Source: Catajapyx aquilonaris
Lineage: Eukaryota
Assembly (NCBI GenBank): GCA_000934665.2
Contig: JYFJ02003639.1
Coordinates: 1 to 39,332 of the forward strand
Length of the DNA: 39,332 nt
Direction of reading: 5' to 3'
Under the pieces are notes generated by a model. The model saw only the letters and a list, made by a program, of their open reading frames with translations, was not told the origin of the DNA and ran no database searches. Made by a program: the position numbers and the translations under genes. Below, piece after piece: positions 5,923 through 22,767 of the stretch. Numbering within the stretch: the stretch's first letter is position 1; the number at the start of each line of letters is the position of its first letter.

Positions 5923-8900
5923 ATGAGCTCGAGGAAGGCACATACTTGCACTCTGTGCAATGTAGGATTTTCTTCAAGACAGCAATTATTGCGTCATAAT
6001 GCTAATAACCACTTATGTAGTTTATGTAACGTGGTTATGTCCAACCGTGCTGAATTGTTAACACATCAAGAGGTAGTACACCCAATTCCGGATGTGGTAA
6101 GTACGATTTTAAATATAAGGTAATAATTTTATTAATATACTTTTAATAATTTAGGGTGAGTTCCGGTTGGAAAATTCTGCATTCCACAATGGCTTGCGAC
6201 AATTCCGATGTGAAAACGTGCATAATGCTACATCGGTGGAAGAAGTATTCCGGCAGTTCAGCCCACGGGAAATATGGCAAACACACCTAAACTTTTTTCC
6301 GGCACTACGAACACAGGTGACTCTTAGTGTTCTCATGGGAAAATTGGAAGGTGAGGAGGAAAATGAGTCCATTGCATATTTTCCAAGCACCTACGAAACC
6401 ATTTATCGTGAGTCTAATATGGAAGACGTGATTGAGAAGATGGTTGAAAAGATTAATACTAATATTGCCAATTATGAAAGTCGTGGATCAAATTGGTTTA
6501 TAAAGTGTTTTGAAATGCTAGATGTTGTTGTAGGAAATTATTCAGCTTGGAAAGTAGGGTGTTTTGTGGAAACACCTAAAGAATTGGTTCCCAAGAAGGC
6601 TATTATTAATGTGCAAGCTCCTAAGAATAAGTGTTTTTTATATAGTGTAGCAGCTGGCATGTTGAAAAATATTCGGAATCCTAACAGACCGGGACATTAT
6701 GAGGGACTTATTCAGAAATTTAATATCGAAAACCTAAATTTTCCCATCTCCGTTAAGGATGTTGATAAATTTGAAAGACAGAATTCAGTCTCTATCAATG
6801 TATTTGGTTACGAGGAATTTACAATTTTTCCCTTGCGAGTAACAGAGGTCGACAAGTTAAGTCATGTAAATCTACTGTTATTAGAGCAAAATGGAATGCG
6901 ACATTTTTGTACTATAACCAACCTAAGTCGTCTTTTGGCAACTGGCTCAGAATGTGGTCACTATAATTACTGTAGGTATTGTTTAAACAGATTTAAACAT
7001 ACATGTGAAGATCATGAAGCACAATGTAGAAATTTTGGATTACAGAAAACAAAAATTCCTGTTAATAGAAATCTAACTTTTAAGAACATACATAAGAAGC
7101 TGAAGAAAAGTTTTGTGGCATATGCAGACTTTGAATGTTTCATTTCCGATTCAAACAAGCACGTGCCACATAGCTATTCATATGTCATAATAAATGCGAG
7201 TGGGCAGGTTCACAAATTCCAATTGTATAGGGGTCCCAACACAATTTCCCACTTTTTGCAAAGTCTAACAGAAGATATTAAAACCATAGTTCCCAAAATA
7301 CAAGAAAACCGTAAACGGAAACGAGGGATTGAAGAGGGAGAACCTGAAATATGCCACATATGTGAAGAATCATTTGAGCCTAATGATGTTATTGTAGTCG
7401 ACCATGATCATAATAACGGAAAGTTTCGGGGATTTGCACATCGTCATTGTAATTTATCATATCGTCTAGATGATAAAATCCCCATATTTTTTCACAACTT
7501 CACGCGCTATGACAGTCATTTTTTAATTCGGGAAATGGCTGGCACAGATGCTCACATTGAACTAATTGCTCGAAATTCTGAACAAATCATTTGTATGATA
7601 GTGAATGACATGTGTTTTATTGACAGTTATAATTTTTTAGCATCCAGTTTAGAAAAATTAGTTGAAAATCTGGTTAACGCTCAGTCCAACTTTTCTATTG
7701 TTAAACAAGTGATAAAGGATCCAACTCTGATCGACTGTTTTAAGAGGAAAGGAGTTTTTCCCTATGAATATGTCACAAATTGGAATTGCTTTGATGACAC
7801 GTCTTTACCAAAAAGAGAAGCATTTTTTTCCACTTTATCAGGAAAAGGAATTACGCTAGAAGATTATGATTTTGCTAAAAAAATGTGGCAAGTTGCAAAG
7901 TGTGAAAATTTAGGTCAATATTCTGACGAGTATTTACGTGCAGATACGTTACTTCTTGCGCAGGTCTTTGAGGAATTTCGAAAACTTACTGATGTGACAT
8001 ACAAACTCGACCCTTGTCATTATATCAGTCTCCCCGGTTTAACTTTAGATGCTTGCCTTAAAAAAACCAAAATCAGTATAGAATTATTTAATCATGTAGA
8101 TTTTTACCAATTTGTAGAACGTGGGATACGAGGAGGATGTTCATTTATTGGCCAGAGATATAGCAAAGCAAACAATCCATACATGGGGTCAAAGTTCAAC
8201 AAAACTAAACCAACTTCTTATATTGTTTATCTTGATTTTAATAATTTATATGGGTACGCGCAAACCCAATTATTACCTGTAGGTGGTTATTGTTGGCGCG
8301 AGCCAAAAGATTTTGAGAAATGGATACATAATAATGCTATTGATGTATCGGATGATTCGGAGGTGGGTTACATGTTGGAAGTTGACCTAGATTACCCTAA
8401 TGACTTGCATATGGAGCATTCGTGTTTTCCATTAGCACCAGAGAAATTAATAGTAAAAGATAAATGGTTGTCCGACTTTCAAAAAACCATGAGTGGGCGG
8501 AAAGGTCCATCTAGGGTTGCTAAGCTAGTCCCAAATCTCTTTAACAAAAAGAATTACATTGTTGACTACAGATGTCTCAAACTTTACTTAAAGCATGGTT
8601 TGAAATTGGTTCGTATACATAGAGTCTTACAGTATAAACAATCTCACATCTTAAAGGAATACATTGAACTAAACAATGACCTTAGAAAAGAAGCTAAAAA
8701 TGATTTTGACAAATCTTTTTATAAGCTGATGAATAATTCTCTTTATGGAAAATGTTTAGAAGATGTTAGAAATCGACAGAATTTCGAACTTATAACCAAC
8801 CAGAAAAAGCTTCAAAAACGTATGAATGCTCCATCACTACAAAGAGCTATGGTTTTGGCCAAAGATTTAGTCTTAATACAAAAAAGAAAACTTTGTGTTG

Positions 8901-9499
8901 AACTCTCAAAACCTATCATTCTAGGTTTTACTATTCTAGAATTGGCTAAAAAACAAATGTATTCCTTCCACTATGACTTCATTAAACCATTGTATGGGGA
9001 CAGGTGCACTCTTTTAATGTCTGATACGGATAGTTATGTCTATTCAATTCAGACGGATGACATATATGCAGACATGAAGAAAAACAGCCAGTACTTTGAT
9101 CTTTCCAACTACCCTAAAACGCATGATTTATATGACTTGAGCAATAAAAGTCGGCTCGGGATAATGAAAGATGAATTGGGTGGAAAAATTGCTCATTCTT
9201 TTATTGGCTTAAAACCAAAAGCTTATAACCTTTTGCTAGAAGATGGAACTGAGAAAAGGGCGGCAAAAGGGGTCAGTCGTTCTACCAAGCTGAGTCATAG
9301 TGTATATAAGGAAGTATTAAAAAAGCAGATTGCAGTATATACTAAGATTGTACAAATTCGCAGCAAAAATCATGAAGTGTCTACTGAAACTGGTGTTAAG
9401 GTGGCATTACAACCATATGATGATAAGCGATATATCTTTGATGATGGATGTACTACAAGTGCTCTGGGTCATGTAGATAATAAGACATCTGACGAATAA
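5923..9499 (+). CDS. polB: Protein-primed family B DNA polymerase, spliced (exons 5923-6096, 6155-9499; 1172 aa), with N-terminal C2H2 zinc fingers and an inserted endonuclease VII-like domain
   Basis: Exonuclease motifs YADFEC, FHNFTRYDSHF and YLRADTLLL; RKGVFPYEY; polymerase motifs LDFNNLYG, KLMNNSLYGK and SDTDS. A phase-0 intron (6097-6154, GTAAGT...TTTAG) supplies the ATG missing from the TTG-started 6167 ORF. Confidence 0.95.
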
Positions 9500-9771: not shown

Positions 9772-10443
9772 TTACAGCGTTTCGTCATCAAAACATAATC
9801 TATATTTTCCATTTCCACGAGTTCGAGTCTTATCAATTGTAAGGAAACCATATTTTCTTTGCCAACTCTTTATACAAAGTTTTTTAAATTCTTGAAAATT
9901 TTCTAAATCATTGGTACAATGGTCACGATAAATCATATTTAAATTTCGATCACATTGAGGAAACACTAAAATCAAATTAGCATTGTCTCTGATTAATGCT
10001 GGGGGGATCATATTATATGTTTGTGCTAAATAAAAGCAATTCATATTTTTATGTCGACCGTGAGTAAAAACATCTTGAATTATGCGTTGTTTTCGAAGCT
10101 GAACATCATCAAACACAACTAAGTGTACTAAGCTGGGGTCGAGCTCGGTCAGTACTTCTTCGTCTTGAGTGAATAGTAATCTGCTCTCCTCTTCTTCATT
10201 TTTGAAGGCTTCCAGTAACCTTTTATATATTAGTTGCTCTGCTGTAGAAGTAAATATGATTAGTTTATCATAATCAATATATTTAGGAATAAGGATTAGG
10301 TTTACTAGTAAATTGGTTTTGCCACAGTTACTTGGACCAACTATAATGCATCTAATGCTTGAAGGTAATATTTTATGATGCTTTAAGAGCTTTGGTTGTA
10401 GTCCACTCGTCATGTTAAATATTTCCATCGTAAATGATAACAT
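9772..10443 (-). CDS. A32/FtsK-HerA family genome-packaging ATPase
   Basis: Walker A GPSNCGKT, Walker B LVVFDD, GRH motif, LAQ..Y and IR.NAN, as in Polinton and poxvirus A32-like ATPases. Confidence 0.93.
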   Translation of the reverse strand: MLSFTMEIFNMTSGLQPKLLKHHKILPSSIRCIIVGPSNCGKTNLLVNLILIPKYIDYDKLIIFTSTAEQLIYKRLLEAFKNEEEESRLLFTQDEEVLTELDPSLVHLVVFDDVQLRKQRIIQDVFTHGRHKNMNCFYLAQTYNMIPPALIRDNANLILVFPQCDRNLNMIYRDHCTNDLENFQEFKKLCIKSWQRKYGFLTIDKTRTRGNGKYRLCFDDETL

Positions 10444-11446: not shown

Positions 11447-12700
11447 ATGCGCACGCATGTGAGTGGCACAGGTAATTTCTTAAACAAAGTGATTGATAAG
11501 CTTCCTTTTGAATTACATATCCCCGGATTTAATTTTTGTGGGCCAGGAACACGTTTAAAGAAAAGATTAGAGCGGGGAGATGTTGGGATTAATGAATTAG
11601 ACGAAGCTTGTAAAGAACATGACATTGCATATGCATCTGGTGCGGATAGACGAGAAGCAGATAAAGTTTTAGCGCAAAAGGCGTGGCAGTTAGTAAAAAG
11701 CCGACATGTCGGGTTAAAACAAAAACTAACTGCCTTAGCAGTAACAGCTGCGATGAAAGTGAAAGGGTTCATTGAAGGTCGTGGGAGTGGGGTAATGGAA
11801 ACCATTGCGAGAGAAGTACATCGACCCGCTAGAAAAACGTTTCCGAGACGTCACGTGATAACAAAAGGGCCTAATGATCTGTGGCAAGCGGATCTGGTTG
11901 AAATGTTGGAATTTTCCCGCTCAAATAAAGGTTATAAATATATACTAATGATAATCGATACATTCACTAAGTTCGCATGGGCTATAGCATTAAAAAAGAA
12001 AACAGGTGCAGAAGTAACTGATAGTATGAAAAAAGTAATGAAAAGAAATCATAAACCTACTCATCTGCAAACTGATAAGGGAAAAGAATTCTATAATCAA
12101 TATTTTTCTAAATTGATGCAGGAACTAAGTGTAAATCATTACTCTACACATTCCGATCTTAAAGCATCGATTGTTGAAAGACTCAATAGAACAATTAAAA
12201 ATCGCATGTATGAACGCTTTACAGCACTTGGCCATCATCGATGGATTGATTTATTACCAAGTATAATTAAAAAATATAATGAAAGCTATCATCGAACTAT
12301 AGGAACAACCCCATCTAAAGCTTATCGAAATGTGAAAGACATTACGGAGAAAATTTCTTCTTCCCGTAAAGTAGAACTCAAAACCCCCAAATATAAAATT
12401 GGAGATCGAGTGCGGATTTCAAAAGTAAGGGGGCAGTTTCACAAAGGTTATTTACCAAATTGGAGTAATGAGATATTTCAGATTGAAAGTGTTAGACAAA
12501 AGACTATAGATCCAATCACATACAAATTAGGTGGGGTAGATGGATCATTTTACGAACAAGAACTCTTAAAAACGAAAATTCCTGACGTGTATTTGATAGA
12601 GAAAGTTATAAAAAGGAAGGGTGATAAATTGTATGTGAAATGGAAGGGCTTTAGTTCTGCTCATAATAGTTGGATATTAAAGAGTGATGTAGAGGTATAA
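11447..12700 (+). CDS. Parvovirus VP1u-type phospholipase A2 fused to a retroviral-like (rve) DDE integrase with C-terminal chromodomain
   Basis: PLA2: PGFNFCGPGT...NELDEACKEHDIAY. Integrase: WQADL, IIDTFTKFAW, LQTDKGKEF, SIVERLNRTIK. Chromodomain: YLIEKVI...LYVKWKGF...NSWI. Confidence 0.95.
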   Translation: MRTHVSGTGNFLNKVIDKLPFELHIPGFNFCGPGTRLKKRLERGDVGINELDEACKEHDIAYASGADRREADKVLAQKAWQLVKSRHVGLKQKLTALAVTAAMKVKGFIEGRGSGVMETIAREVHRPARKTFPRRHVITKGPNDLWQADLVEMLEFSRSNKGYKYILMIIDTFTKFAWAIALKKKTGAEVTDSMKKVMKRNHKPTHLQTDKGKEFYNQYFSKLMQELSVNHYSTHSDLKASIVERLNRTIKNRMYERFTALGHHRWIDLLPSIIKKYNESYHRTIGTTPSKAYRNVKDITEKISSSRKVELKTPKYKIGDRVRISKVRGQFHKGYLPNWSNEIFQIESVRQKTIDPITYKLGGVDGSFYEQELLKTKIPDVYLIEKVIKRKGDKLYVKWKGFSSAHNSWILKSDVEV

Positions 12701-13703: not shown

Positions 13704-14414
13704 ATGATGCTTCTCGAGATTAGTGGAAGGTGTCCATTAATTAGTGCGACATTCTCACCACCAATCGCTTTACCTGAAAAATGTGAATTAGCGTTAATTG
13801 GTTTTAACACCTATTATTCCAATCCGAATATCGATCATTCTAATTGCGAGTTATACTATACCATAGGCAATGGAAAGACTCAATTACTCAAAATCCCTTA
13901 CGGTCATTACGAAGCTAAGGAACTTGCAGAACTCATTAACCAAAAAATACCAGAAATAAATATTATTATAAATGACAATACCGGTAGGTCAGAGATAACA
14001 ACAACTTCTCAAGATAATGTTATATTAGCTTTTTCTGCGCCATATTCAGTTGGAAAGGTTCTAGGTTTTCACAAGAACGTTACATTACAACATAATACAC
14101 CTGCAAAGGTAAGTAAATTCTTAATCAACATAACTAAAGTTACGTCTATACAAATACATTGTAATATTGTAAGCCGGGGGTATGTTAATGGTAAAGAAAC
14201 AAATCTCTTATATTCTTATTATCCGGATGTTGCACCTCATTACCTAATAGTGAAAGAAATTGCTAATCCTATTTACCTACCACTATCAGCATCATTTATT
14301 GACGATCTACACATAAATATAACTGATCAGGATGGACAAAAGCTATATAATGGGGATGATTTAATCACTTTTCGCATTCACGTGAGACCAATCAATAGAG
14401 ATGTTATCGCGTAG
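13704..14414 (+). CDS. Minor capsid protein (penton, single jelly roll)
   Basis: F.PPI.L, ALI.F.TY.S.PNI, IP.G.YE, I.I.CNIV..Y.NG and PIYLP...I.ITDQDG pattern; lies directly upstream of the major capsid gene. Confidence 0.85.
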   Translation: MMLLEISGRCPLISATFSPPIALPEKCELALIGFNTYYSNPNIDHSNCELYYTIGNGKTQLLKIPYGHYEAKELAELINQKIPEINIIINDNTGRSEITTTSQDNVILAFSAPYSVGKVLGFHKNVTLQHNTPAKVSKFLINITKVTSIQIHCNIVSRGYVNGKETNLLYSYYPDVAPHYLIVKEIANPIYLPLSASFIDDLHINITDQDGQKLYNGDDLITFRIHVRPINRDVIA

Positions 14415-15666
14415 AGCTCAAGACGTTTTACATGGATTAACTTCTTCACCTGGGAATGAGGAACTAGAATTTAAAAAACTAGATTACATCGAATACCAAC
14501 CAGATTCTAGTGATTTAAACTTTCCCAATTCTGATGTGGTTCACAGACTACCTCGCCTTGATAGTTACGTAGATTTATCACGGGCATATTATTACTTTAA
14601 AGGAGTAATTGTAAAAGGGCCAACGAATCAAAAATTTGACCCTGCTGACAAGATACACCCAATCAATAATTTTGTTCTTTTCCATTTTGATAAATTTTCA
14701 TGTACCATTAATGATTCAGAGGTGACTTATCTTCAGAATTTAGGACGTGCTACAACTCTTAAATATATATCATGTTTACACGAAACAAATATAGAAAATG
14801 AAGGTTGGAATATAAATATTACCAGAAATAAAGATTCTCGTATAAAAGATGGACAATTCTCATTCATAATTCCACTGAAGCGGTTATCCGGCTTCTTTGA
14901 GGATTTAAATCAGGTTTTGTATGGTCCCACGGTTAAGTGCGTCTTGAGTCGTAATGATTTGGTCAAGGATACTCTATATGTGTATGAGGGTGCTGCAAAT
15001 GCAGTACATGAATCATATAAAATTAATTTTGAACAAATATCTTTATTCATCCCACATTTAGAACCTACTATATCCACACATACTAAATACCTATCTCTCC
15101 TACAAAACGAAACTCCGCAAGAATTTAAATATAGGGATTTTCGGTGTGGTACTTTGCCTCTGACAAAGGGGGCTAACACATTTTCTTTTAATATTCCGAT
15201 TAGTGGACTCATGGTTAATGTACCTCATTATGTGATAGTTGGGTTTCAAAGTGGACGAGAAAACGCATTGAAGAAAGATACCTCACATTTTGATCATATA
15301 TATCTTAAAGACATCAATATACTACTAAATAATCAGAGGTTTCCTGGAAAGGATTTAAATTTAGATTGGGAAAGAAATGAGTGTCAGAAATTATATTACA
15401 TGTTGATTAATTTTAAGAATTCATATTACGGAAGAGACTTGTCAACAGTGGTCTCACACTCTGACTTTATAGACAAATGTCCAATTGTTGCAATTGATTG
15501 TAGTCAGCAAAACATGGAACTAACTACTTCCAGTTCGAATATGGCACTCGACATACGACTTAGTAAGGATTTGGGAGAAGATACCCGCATGTATTATCTC
15601 CTAATCTATTACCGTACCTTCCAAACGTCTTTTGGTGGCACTCGCATGATGGAGTTGACAGTATAA
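14401..15666 (+). CDS. Major capsid protein (double jelly roll)
   Basis: 421 aa, beta-rich; NNF...F, F...IPL..L.GFFED, P.YVIVGFQ..R, FDH..L....LN..RFP and IDCS.Q motifs of Polinton major capsid proteins. Confidence 0.88.
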   Translation: MLSRRAQDVLHGLTSSPGNEELEFKKLDYIEYQPDSSDLNFPNSDVVHRLPRLDSYVDLSRAYYYFKGVIVKGPTNQKFDPADKIHPINNFVLFHFDKFSCTINDSEVTYLQNLGRATTLKYISCLHETNIENEGWNINITRNKDSRIKDGQFSFIIPLKRLSGFFEDLNQVLYGPTVKCVLSRNDLVKDTLYVYEGAANAVHESYKINFEQISLFIPHLEPTISTHTKYLSLLQNETPQEFKYRDFRCGTLPLTKGANTFSFNIPISGLMVNVPHYVIVGFQSGRENALKKDTSHFDHIYLKDINILLNNQRFPGKDLNLDWERNECQKLYYMLINFKNSYYGRDLSTVVSHSDFIDKCPIVAIDCSQQNMELTTSSSNMALDIRLSKDLGEDTRMYYLLIYYRTFQTSFGGTRMMELTV

Positions 15667-15689
15667 ATAGCTTCAACTTTAGTCGATTG

Positions 15690-15986
15690 ATGTCTATAAT
15701 GGTTGTGAGAAAGAAAGGGGTGAGACGTGTTAAAAAACAACGGAATCTGAAAAAAAAACGCGGAGGATTTCTACCTCTGCTGATACCTGCAGTAGGGGCG
15801 CTAGTCTCAGCCATTTCCGGAATTACGAGTGCGGCACTCAATGCCAAAGCCAATCAGAAACGTATGGATATGATACAAAAGCAGAATCAAATTATATCCC
15901 AACTAAAGGGTGGGAGGGGTCTAAAGCTTTATCCTTATCGGCAGAGGAGAGGTTCGGGGGTAAAAAGACGGAAATCACGCCGTTAA
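15690..15986 (+). CDS. Basic core protein resembling adenovirus pX (mu precursor)
   Basis: Lys/Arg-rich N-terminus followed by KRGGFLPLLIPAVGALVSAISGITSAAL, close to adenovirus pX MRGGILPLLIPLIAAAIGA; LKGG protease-type site. First ATG is at 15690. Confidence 0.8.
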   Translation: MSIMVVRKKGVRRVKKQRNLKKKRGGFLPLLIPAVGALVSAISGITSAALNAKANQKRMDMIQKQNQIISQLKGGRGLKLYPYRQRRGSGVKRRKSRR

Positions 15987-16372
15987 CAAATGAGGACATT
16001 ATTCATTTAGCTAAATGGTTAAAAATTAAAAATTTTAAAGGTGTTTTTATGCGTGACGAACTTAAAGGTGTTGTTGGAAACCGTGAGTGTGGGGTAATAA
16101 ATTTAGACAATAGTAATGGTCCCGGGACCCATTGGACAGCATACTGGAAAAATGATGGTAATGTTTATTACTTTGATAGTATTGGTGATATAAAACCTCC
16201 TACAGAATTAATAAAATATTTAGGACCCAATATATATTACAATGTAAATCGATTGCAGAGCATAGACAATGGTGAACCCTCTTGTGGTCACCTATGTTTA
16301 ATAATTCTCTCTGACCTAAGTGAAGGCTACTCGTTCCAAGATATTTTAAACCAATATGAATCGATTTGGTAA
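15980..16372 (+). CDS. Adenain/Ulp1-type cysteine maturation protease (conserved region starts upstream of the first ATG at 16049)
   Basis: Catalytic motifs GTHW, YFDS and Q...CGHLC. The in-frame upstream sequence reads PLTNEDII...IKNFKGVFMRD, the usual N-terminus of this family. Confidence 0.9.
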   Translation, partial: PLTNEDIIHLAKWLKIKNFKGVFMRDELKGVVGNRECGVINLDNSNGPGTHWTAYWKNDGNVYYFDSIGDIKPPTELIKYLGPNIYYNVNRLQSIDNGEPSCGHLCLIILSDLSEGYSFQDILNQYESIW

Positions 16373-17135
16373 ATGCACTTCTTCGTCACCAGGGCTACAT
16401 AGAATGGGAAGTGGGAAACAGTTCACAGAGGGAGACGATTTTTATGGATTTCATGGAAAGCGATTAAATAATGTAGGTCCACCACAACAATTAAATGATG
16501 TTGTAACAAGAGCCTATTTAGACCAGTTTGCTAGGATAAGAACAAGTGATGGAAAGGAACTGTTAACTGTTCCACCTCGCGGACCTATCAATGTTCACGA
16601 AAAGCGATTAAGTAATATAGGTCAACCTATTGAACCAATGGATGCTGTGACCTTACAATACATACAACAAAAATGTATTACGCATGATGACTCCATTAAA
16701 TGCTATTATGCGAATGGAGAAAGAATAGCAGGTGTTGCAACACCTGTAGATGATCAGGATTGTGTAAATCAAGGATTTCTCAAGTCGGTTACATTAATTC
16801 GCGACGAACATGGATACAATGCTAAAGGAAAACGCATTGGACAAGTTTTAGCGCCAGAATCTGATGATGATGTTGTCACCCTTGCTCACCTTACCCATCA
16901 GTGTTTAACTAAACATAAAAAACATTACACTGCAAAAAAATTAAAGATAATGAAACTGGGAACTCCGGAGGCACCGGATGATGCTTGTACTAAAGACTAT
17001 GTGGATTTTTACGTTCGCAACATTGTTAAAATACTTCTCAAATTGGGACGAGAAGATATGTCAGAAGAAGTCTTAGGTATAAATACAATGTTAAATGATG
17101 CACCTGTTCCACAAAGTGATTCAACCCCCTTGTAG
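16356..17135 (+). CDS. Putative fibre/spike protein with five adhesin-stalk-like repeats
   Basis: Repeats KRLNNVGPP...DVVTRAYLD, KRLSNIGQP...DAVTLQYI, ERIAGVATP...DCVNQGFL, KRIGQVLAP...DVVTLAHL and KIMKLGTP...DACTKDYVD; AATAAA at 17159. Confidence 0.75.
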   Translation: MNRFGKCTSSSPGLHRMGSGKQFTEGDDFYGFHGKRLNNVGPPQQLNDVVTRAYLDQFARIRTSDGKELLTVPPRGPINVHEKRLSNIGQPIEPMDAVTLQYIQQKCITHDDSIKCYYANGERIAGVATPVDDQDCVNQGFLKSVTLIRDEHGYNAKGKRIGQVLAPESDDDVVTLAHLTHQCLTKHKKHYTAKKLKIMKLGTPEAPDDACTKDYVDFYVRNIVKILLKLGREDMSEEVLGINTMLNDAPVPQSDSTPL

Positions 17136-20938: not shown

Positions 20939-21144
20939 CGATAAAGGTGGTGGCGCTCATGGGTGTCGCCATTTTACAAGATGGTGGCCTACATGGTGCA
21001 ACCGACCTAACACACTTCCGCTAGTGCCATTCCTACCGCCTCCGATAAAGATGGCGGTGCTCATGGGTGTCGCCATTTTACAAGATGGTGGCCTACATAG
21101 TGCAACCAACCTAGCACACTTCAGCTAGTGCCATTCCTACCGCC
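20939..21144 (+). repeat. Tandem duplication (104-bp period) of the inner TIR segment, right end only
   Basis: CGATAAAG...CCATTCCTACCGCC at 20939-21040 and 21043-21144. Confidence 0.9.
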
Positions 21145-21377
21145 ATTGGCTCTGTCGGCGCTTCCCAATGATATTTCCCGTAGACGGTAGCGCCCCTACC
21201 GAGTCGTAAAAACCAGAAACATGCCTATGTGTCCTGGCACACTTGGCCTAGGGACACTCCCCACCGCTCAGGCGCTGGCAGCGCCCACCTATGTTATTTC
21301 ACATAGACAGTGCTGCCTCTGGTGTTGGGGAGTGTCCCTAGGCCAAGTGTGCCAGGACACATAGGCATAATACTACT
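21040..21377 (-). repeat. Right terminal inverted repeat (338 bp)
   Basis: Reverse complement of 1714-2051; ends in ACTACT, followed by TSD AACCCT. Confidence 0.97.
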
Positions 21378-22767
21378 AACCCTGAAGAAAATCGTAACCA
21401 GACAATATTTCTGTTCATATTTAGCGCCATTTAGCATCTGATGTCAGGCTTACGGGAGGCAACATATGGGACACACCCGACACACCATCTTACGCCTTGA
21501 CCACAAATTCAATAAAATCACTTGTGCCAACACGTAAAAGAAAACATCTGATTCTTTTTTCGCTAATGTGACGTGGAGATACCAAGTACGTGCAAGTATA
21601 TGCTGATGATAGAGACCATCCTGACAAAATAAAGCGACAATCCCTCCGCAAATTTGTGGGCGGGATGCTTATATGTCTGGTTCATATTGTCGCCTAATAA
21701 TTTTCATAGAAGTTCTGGGGCGAACAAAACAGCCTGGCTGTACCAGAAGCGAGATTAAAACGAGGCATATTAGGATAAAATAATAACTAATACGCCAAAA
21801 GATGGCCGAGTGCACCCTATTCGATTAAGGGATCATGAGAACCAACACACGACTAATTGTGGTGGGTGTGGTTCAAAGGACGAAATGCGTGGCATAAAAA
21901 TGGCACAGAGAAGGCAGTACACCAAGTGGGGAACTCTGGGCCATCCCAGGATTAAGTTCAAAAAGAGAGGCACGATCTGGTTAAAAATTGGACTTATCAA
22001 TGTTTTTGTTGAAACAAATCAAGGGCAGAGACAAAACATGCAATGCCTAAGCACTTAGATGCTTTTAACTACTGAACATCAATCTGGTCTTTTTGTCCAT
22101 CACATCACTTACAGTTAAGTATAAGGATGGAGAAGGATCAAAAACATTTAGCATCTGATACTAGCCTTGTAGGAACCGGAAAACACCTCAGACAAACACT
22201 TTAACACTTAGGCCTAGACCACACATTCCATAAAACCGCTGAAATAAATAACTATAGGCTACAATAACAGGCAAAACACGTAAAAGAAAACACCTTAATT
22301 GTCCCCTAATGTTAGCTGTATCAGTTTATAATTTTTGCACATTTTTGATTTGCTTCTGGCAGGAGCAAATGTATTAGAAACAATATTACTGAGACAGTTT
22401 GCACACTAAAGTCGAATGCAAATAAGAACGCAGACAACTGCCCCATGCAAACTCACTTCTTGGGGGCTGCCATTTGTATTGAAATTCCATTCCCCCATCC
22501 AGCGTTGGAATCACAAGAGGGTCACTGGGTCCATAATAAAACAAGTTACTTAGGACTATTCCTGACCCACTGCAATGCCAAAATCTTGCAATTTTCTCAT
22601 CGCTTATTTGTTCATAATTATTATATACTTCACAGATATGCTCATGAAGGCTGTTTGCACTAGTAAAACCAAACTAGCACGAAGTGGCTTCATCTCACAT
22701 TCTGCCTAACTCCTTGTATCTGGCGTATTCATTGTGCATGTCACAATTTTATCTTTGTGATGTAGAT

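Follow-up and report, generated by a model that had tools for sequence, protein, structure and literature searches.

A candidate gag-pro-type -1 ribosomal frameshift joining pX to an adenain-like protease in a Polinton/adintovirus element and its relatives

Results

An element that looks young and intact

The window – the whole 39,332-nt stretch analysed here, contig JYFJ02003639.1 of the Catajapyx aquilonaris assembly GCA_000934665.2, read on the forward strand and numbered from its first letter – contains a Polinton/Maverick element of the adintovirus kind, approximately 19.7 kb in size. All of the Polinton/adintovirus hallmarks are present: a protein-primed PolB, an rve integrase with a chromodomain, an A32-type ATPase, a double-jelly-roll (DJR) capsid protein, an adenain and terminal inverted repeats. 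The gene overlap described below sits within this element, the main features of which are the following:

1713-2051, no strand assigned: left terminal inverted repeat, a 339-nt arm 99% complementary to 21040-21378
6335-9499, + strand: protein-primed PolB
9772-10443, minus strand: A32-type ATPase
11447-12700, + strand: rve integrase with chromodomain
14401-15666, + strand: DJR major capsid protein gene, directly upstream of pX (Pfam DJR-like_dom, E 4.7e-42)
16356-17135, + strand: ORF with a fibre-like match
21040-21378, no strand assigned: right terminal inverted repeat, partner of 1713-2051

With terminal repeats that are 99% identical and core ORFs that run without interruption, the element looks young and intact.

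Several of these ORFs carry further domain matches. The integrase ORF (11447-12700, + strand) has a parvovirus-type PLA2-like domain (residues 22-69, E 3.7e-9) N-terminal to the rve and chromo domains; in relatives, by contrast, the PLA2-like domain is fused to pX, forming the PLA2X gene. In the PolB ORF (6335-9499, + strand), an Endonuclease_7 match (residues 327-380, E 5.4e-7) lies just ahead of the PolB domain, and the OTU-like N-terminal domain of adintovirus PolB, as described in the available text of PMC11071296, had no Pfam match in the window's PolB. The ORF at 16356-17135 (+ strand) overlaps the protease stop codon by 17 nt; over a short segment it matches the N-terminal domain of the phage T7 tail fibre (E 4.9e-7), and it may encode a fibre-like protein. 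A 108-nt inverted repeat (92% complementary, 15-nt spacer) made up of short GTGACGGACTAA-like units is located at 1112-1342, just beyond the outer end of the left terminal repeat.

The assembly of the region of interest was compared with Logan contigs of three DNA runs, which match 15300-16700 with zero indels at a word depth of 34-48; the three runs come from one sample, possibly the assembly source, and do not constitute independent support. Given these indel-free contigs, a homopolymer assembly error at the junction is unlikely. The DNA-run contig containing the pX/protease junction is 5927 nt only. In each run a second contig matches 50 nt of the capsid gene (15367-15416) with 8-10 mismatches and diverges beyond it, which suggests that a diverged further copy of a related element is present in the same genome.

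The pX and protease frames overlap, and the protease has no usable start codon

Immediately after the capsid gene, a short pX-like ORF runs into a second, protease-coding frame, and the two share the following features, all on the + strand:

15690-15986, + strand: pX-like core or membrane-active protein ORF, zero frame, 98 aa (Pfam Adeno_PX, E 6.8e-9)
15750-15758, + strand: A9 run, in phase; use unlikely
15903-15914, + strand: LKGG motif in pX (L72-G75), candidate adenain-type cleavage site, kept in the homologues P0187 and P0188
15959-15965, + strand: G_GUA_AAA, candidate -1 slip site of the G_GU class (P-site GUA to GGU, A-site AAA to AAA)
15962-15968, + strand: homologous counterpart of the relatives' A_AAA_AAC, with A_AAA_AGA as its seven bases (by alignment of the -1 frame KK codons)
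15965-16372, + strand: -1 frame as it would be read after the slip, with the linker KKTEIT followed by the adenain-like protease (stop codon 16370-16372)
15984-15986, + strand: pX stop codon TAA, 18 nt past the heptamer
16049-16051, + strand: first ATG in the protease frame (Met25), within the fold: in the model it follows helix 5-14 and closes strand 20-25
16130-16285, + strand: catalytic residues H52 (16130), D67 (16175), Q94 (16256) and C103 (16283), invariant in 36 aligned sequences

The Adeno_PX match covers pX residues 21-53 and scores 35.9 bits against a cut-off of 25; the closest pX homologues, P0187 and P0188, are 68% identical. Reading LKGG as an adenain-type cleavage site presumes the adenain cleavage consensus. 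An earlier note on this DNA had placed the protease in the -1 frame relative to pX, open from 15734 and with its first ATG at 16049, and had its conserved N-terminus (PLTNEDI...FKGVFMRD) begin at 15980, overlapping the pX stop codon; we reproduced all of these coordinates. The -1 frame is open for 253 nt.

A Pfam search with the protease returned no protease family up to E = 10. When a profile of 14 relatives was compared with PDB sequences, it matched ASFV S273R (E 1.1e-4) and adenain 1avp (E 3e-4). The AlphaFold2 (AF2) model of the protease has a mean pLDDT of 91.7, and the top six Foldseek matches to this model are all adenovirus proteinases (E 2e-7 to 9e-6, TMq 0.70-0.73), 1nln being the best of them (E 2.1e-7). 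The catalytic roles given above to H52, D67, Q94 and C103 are ones that we assume by analogy. Judged by profile and model together, the protein classes as an adenain-like cysteine protease of clan CE, peptidase C5-like.

The simplest way of expressing this protease would be initiation at ATG 16049, given that no earlier ATG occurs in the frame and that approximately nine of 185 predicted relatives begin at the equivalent Met. Met25, however, lies inside the confidently modelled fold, and a start at this position would delete folded and conserved parts: helix 5-14 and strand 20-25, both modelled at pLDDT 92-98, as well as L3, F20 and G22 of the N-terminal stretch, which are conserved in 35 relatives. 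We consider initiation at this ATG to be extremely improbable. As there is no ATG before Met25, and Met25 itself falls within the predicted fold, the window offers no usable start codon for the protease.

A putative slip site of the G_GU class

Towards its end the pX frame reads GGG (15957), GTA (15960), AAA (15963) and AGA (15966). This phase bears out the proposal that G_GTA_AAA at 15959-15965, right after RRGSG, is in register for a -1 slip, and a slip at this position would yield 92 + 135 = 227 aa, the same size as was originally suggested. The wording 'GGU variant' is legitimate as well: according to the available text of the review by Atkins et al. (PMC5009743), X_XX = G_GU is a natural variant, seen in T7 gene 10, cardioviruses and some luteoviruses. 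After the slip the A-site Lys codon would re-pair perfectly, and re-pairing at the P site would be poor (GUA versus GGU).

G_GUA_AAA is located one codon ahead of the A_AAA_AGA that is homologous to the relatives' A_AAA_AAC, a heptamer which the same review (PMC5009743) lists among the most shift-prone for mammalian ribosomes. Near its junction the window has G_GUA_AAA as its only heptamer, a non-canonical one, and the A-run at the homologous spot is A5 only. From its sequence, the window heptamer is to be classed as a recognised but weaker type than the lineage norm. In P0187 and P0188 pX has a basic K-R tail, not K-N, and on this basis the variant may belong to the clade and not to this copy alone. 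The window's protease has two nearest neighbours: L035, truncated by the end of its contig, and L059, with the protease at -1 and an A_AAA_AAC; P0002, a protein record at 65% identity, starts with an M two codons ahead of KK.

The A9 run at 15750-15758, put forward by the earlier note as a second candidate, is indeed present and in phase. As a slip site it was rejected: a shift there would skip the conserved pX domain, dropping Adeno_PX residues 21-53, and no relative has a site at this position.

The -1 layout prevails among relatives

Relatives were collected by scanning metagenome contigs with a 14-sequence alignment, and we analysed the best 80 of 416, whose proteases share 44-59% identity with that of the window. 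To locate pX we used an HMM built from the window pX and six in-frame fusions. Among the best 80 of 416, pX was found upstream of the protease in 49 loci, and the protease frame relative to pX was -1 in 39 of these, in frame in six and +1 in four; one of the loci tallied as in frame, L098, has a -1 A_AAA_AAC junction and an additional shift further upstream. Several of the relatives' upstream ORFs are PLA2-like plus pX-like.

A second scoring dispensed with the pX model and defined the -1 layout as an ORF of at least 150 nt ending at most 40 nt from the protease start, with the protease at -1. Ten of the 80 loci are cut at the contig end, leaving 70 assessable: 51 have the -1 layout, two are at +1 and 17 are otherwise arranged (own ATG or in-frame fusion). 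A protease-frame ATG before the conserved N-terminus is absent from 34 of the 51 -1-layout loci and present in 17, and the arrangement seen in the window – an overlapping -1 protease frame without a start of its own – is found in 34 of the 70 assessable relatives. Since loci are not independent samples, we grouped them by single linkage at 70% protease identity into 45 clusters; the -1 layout occurs in 31 clusters, the layout combined with an in-phase heptamer in 27, and the layout combined with A_AAA_AAC in 17. In the protease tree, heptamer-bearing -1 loci are found on each of the two main branches, and many long terminal branches carry them as well. The possibility that the overlap is a private indel of the window was rejected, the -1 layout being the majority state among the relatives' DNA.

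An exhaustive search of 185 predicted relatives yielded six full in-frame pX-protease fusions (P0045, P0049, P0066, P0082, P0120 and P0145), in which the pX-like domain is sometimes preceded by a PLA2-like domain; two further proteins, P0089 and P0115, begin within the pX tail. A homologue search for longer proteins returned no fused form, which is weak evidence. Since in-frame pX-protease fusions exist, the fused protein is a natural product. Many stand-alone protease calls start with an M approximately 10 codons upstream of the PLSN motif. Relatives of the two kinds that had been named as refuting a frameshift – in-frame fusions (the loci L038, L065 and L069, and the six of 185 proteins) and loci with their own ATG – do exist as a minority, but the -1 layout prevails.

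Scanning viral contigs with the protease brought up distant relatives, most of which have an ATG of their own immediately ahead of the domain, and the frameshift layout is thus lineage-specific rather than universal; the viral-contig scan with a pX alignment gave zero relatives. Two viral contigs are described here in their own right. In L002 (2960-3070, 37% identity) the same -1 layout without an ATG is seen: a lysine-rich 360-aa ORF terminating in ...AACAAAAAAAAACAATAA has an in-phase A_AAA_AAA there, and its stop codon comes 16 nt after the opening of the protease frame. In L005 (121-1125) the protease is fused in frame to an N-terminal part of approximately 185 residues with a PLA2-like YxGPG...HD motif.

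Slippery heptamers are conserved in ribosomal phase

Among the loci with the -1 layout and no ATG (from the best 80 of 416), 33 of 34 have an in-phase X_XXY_YYZ heptamer at most 40 nt from the upstream stop codon, and the remaining locus, L066, has an in-phase A_AAA_AAG 42 nt from the stop. The heptamer is mostly A_AAA_AAC, with a few instances of A_AAA_AAA or A_AAA_AAU, and with U_UUU_UUA or U_UUU_UUG in one sub-lineage. Of all 51 -1-layout loci, an in-phase heptamer is present in 47 and A_AAA_AAC in 31. As background we used the last 40 nt of 350 other ORFs (at least 300 nt, from the same loci), where 32 have any heptamer and one has A_AAA_AAC. The relatives' heptamer occupies the spot homologous to window positions 15959-15968, the zero-frame stop codon follows it by 0-6 nt in most relatives, and from the heptamer KK onward the -1 frame is conserved as protein, with the pattern KK..LP.RALTD. 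With the same overlap and in-phase heptamer recurring in relatives far above background, the -1 layout exceeds what chance would be expected to produce.

Whatever the amino acid, A is invariably the third base of the codon preceding the heptamer (CCA, TCA, GCA, CAA, ACA or GAA), a constraint on RNA, not protein. Conservation of site and phase beyond amino-acid needs is seen in 27 of the 45 clusters, on both main branches of the tree. The A6/A7+C runs at the junctions are in phase 0 in 28 of 28 cases, as compared with 17 of 86 in background ORFs, where AAAAAAC is found in phases 0, 1 and 2 in 17, 61 and 8 instances, respectively. The comparison with related Polintons that the earlier note had called for has therefore come out positive for frame, heptamer and phase alike, and its frameshift interpretation is supported by the relatives' layout and heptamers.

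Codon phase also bears on transcriptional slippage, whereby RNA polymerase would add one A within the A-run and so bring the protease into frame in some of the mRNAs. One extra base would give the identical protein, every junction is located at an A- or U-run, and lineages with A9-A11 are found in all three frame relations. Polymerase slippage is, however, independent of codon phase, yet all 28 of the A6/A7+C runs are in the ribosomal phase against a background of 20%, and the run in the window is only A5. We regard transcriptional slippage as decidedly unlikely.

Two groups of relatives depart from the common pattern. Junction runs of A7-A11 are found in L036, L037, L038, L057, L065, L069, L082, L088, L105, L110 and L111, with the protease at 0, +1 or -1; even close relatives differ, L037 (A11) being at +1 and L038 in frame. 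This variation could be due to homopolymer error, real length variation, sliding on poly(A) or polymerase slippage. The sub-lineage with U_UUU_UUA or U_UUU_UUG (GLFL; L041, L044, L047, L050 and L109) has a protease-frame ATG a few codons before the heptamer and a CxxC motif in the pX tail; here the protease could be made via the frameshift, from its own ATG, or by both routes.

A stimulatory RNA structure would be looked for 5-9 nt downstream of a programmed -1 site; none was detected among local, pseudoknot-free folds of the 75 nt past the window site (z = -0.17), in agreement with the initial impression that a strong downstream structure is absent. Across 47 sites the mean z is -0.04, with z < -2 in two of the 47, and RNAalifold with 11 sequences of one subfamily gave -2.5 kcal/mol and zero compensatory pairs.

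Routes to a protease by initiation or splicing

Scanning ribosomes might initiate at the ACG at 15968-15970, giving a stand-alone protease. This codon has A at -3 and G at +4, it is three codons upstream of the conserved N-terminus, and some relatives have a start of their own approximately 10 codons ahead of the PLSN motif. The ACG lies, however, inside the pX ORF, approximately 280 nt past the pX ATG, and what relatives conserve is the slippery heptamer, not a near-cognate start. Non-AUG initiation is, in our judgement, quite unlikely.

Splicing, on the model of adenovirus late mRNAs, would join an ATG-bearing upstream exon to an acceptor immediately ahead of the protease. It is plausible that Polinton-type elements use late transcription of the adenovirus kind, and a pyrimidine-rich stretch ending in CAG is found at 15924-15944. 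The same stretch, however, encodes the conserved LYPY motif of pX, the heptamers alone account for the relatives, and vertebrate Mavericks are described with intronless ORFs in the available text of PMC8097293. Splicing is thus a highly unlikely route to the protease.

An inherited but weakened site is the main rival

The main rival to an operating frameshift site is that the layout was inherited and the site itself is weakened or dead, the heptamer having drifted from the canonical one so that little or no full-length protease is made from this copy. The window reads A_AAA_AGA where 31 of 51 relatives have A_AAA_AAC; its stop codon is not adjacent to the heptamer, lying 18 nt beyond it as opposed to 0-6 nt in most relatives; and no structure was found downstream. 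On the other hand, the 99% identity of the terminal repeats, the intact core ORFs, the intact catalytic residues of the protease and a -1 frame that remains open over 253 nt all speak against decay. The K-R tail is common to the two closest pX homologues, so the variant may be clade-wide, and G_GU heptamers are functional in nature (PMC5009743). While it has to be taken seriously, we find a dead or nearly dead site unlikely.

Discussion

On balance we favour the reading that the pX/protease overlap is a gag-pro-type programmed -1 ribosomal frameshift site that operates in this copy, as the sequence comparisons suggest. The majority of ribosomes would translate the 98-aa pX-like protein and terminate at 15984, and a minority would slip one base back on G_GUA_AAA (15959-15965), read KKTEIT and enter the adenain-like protease, producing a 227-aa pX-protease fusion. 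The pX part would then carry the protease into the particle at a fixed low ratio, and the protease would free itself by cleavage, perhaps at LKGG (15903-15914). Slipping in this particular copy, and its efficiency, are what we infer from the relatives and the site.

For the lineage as a whole the case is firmer: a programmed -1 frameshift is very probably at work there, to judge from the conserved layout and phase. It is also likely, and we hold this with good confidence, that a gag-pro-like -1 frameshift is the ancestral and still prevailing route of protease expression in a large adintovirus/Polinton clade, convergent with retroviruses. This clade-wide reading envisages a site that is mostly A_AAA_AAC with the zero-frame stop codon 0-2 codons behind and no RNA stimulator; the frameshift would set the protease:core ratio, and fusion to pX or PLA2X would load the protease into the capsid. 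In lineages with A9-A11, sliding on poly(A) may achieve the same result.

If true, this would explain the expression and packaging of the maturation protease in these elements, and would represent a recoding signal that is deeply conserved in virus-like elements of the eukaryotic dsDNA kind. Gene models would need correction, as gene callers cut the protease at an internal Met (approximately nine of 185) or miss it altogether, and production of virus-like particles from such elements would require the transframe product. The relatives also provide a natural set of structure-less A_AAA_AAC-plus-stop sites for dissecting what drives -1 shifting. Searches of openly available full texts gave no report of a pX-adenain frameshift.

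Among known systems, the closest parallel is retroviral gag-pro, which includes virus examples with a heptamer of the A_AAA_AAC type. In both cases the structural ORF ends a few codons past A_AAA_AAC, and a protease lacking a start codon occupies the -1 frame; on our proposal the fusion would serve here, as it does there, to fix the stoichiometry and to carry the protease into the particle. Unlike retroviral gag-pro, the system described here belongs to a DNA element of the Polinton/adintovirus kind, its protease is a clan CE adenain rather than an aspartic protease, its upstream partner is pX or PLA2X, and no downstream pseudoknot or stem was found, in a search of local, nested folds.

With the sites of umbraviruses and dianthoviruses (the G_GA variant), cardioviruses and T7 gene 10, all covered in the available text of PMC5009743, the window shares a P-site triplet that is not a homopolymer (G_GA or G_GU). 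The umbravirus, dianthovirus and cardiovirus sites differ in belonging to RNA viruses with 3' stimulators or a trans-acting protein, neither of which was found here. In PEMV (G_GAU_UUU_UGG_UAG) a stop codon 3 nt past the site matters for shifting, according to the same text, and a zero-frame stop codon is likewise found near the heptamer (0-6 nt) in most relatives of the window.

According to the available text of a 2024 Buck-lab preprint (PMC11071296), some adintovirus Penton ORFs have a -1 site predicted by KnotInFrame close to their 3' end, and one sentence mentions predicted 'Hexon-Adenain (Hexain)' fusions. The virus group is the same, and there too adenain would be the transframe extension of a virion protein; the partner, however, is Hexon and not pX or PLA2X, and that text contains no comparative analysis of phase or conservation. 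Starrett et al. 2021 (PMC8502044), from the same laboratory, describe two adintovirus genes, PLA2X and GasderminX, whose products have a pX-like domain at the C-terminus, and their available text has the word 'frameshift' once only, of pseudogenes. Many upstream ORFs of our relatives are, like PLA2X, PLA2-like plus pX-like, and the window pX matches Adeno_PX; unlike PLA2X, it stands alone. As far as the available texts of these sources go, the general idea is already in print as a conjecture, while the pX/PLA2X partner and the comparative evidence are not.

Finally, the tail chaperone G/GT of long-tailed dsDNA phages, as presented in the available text of PMC5009743, relies on prokaryotic ribosomes and yields a chaperone, not a protease. 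Like the arrangement described here, it nonetheless involves a low-level -1 shift, close to the 3' end of a gene for virion assembly in DNA viruses, that is conserved even though sequence similarity is low.
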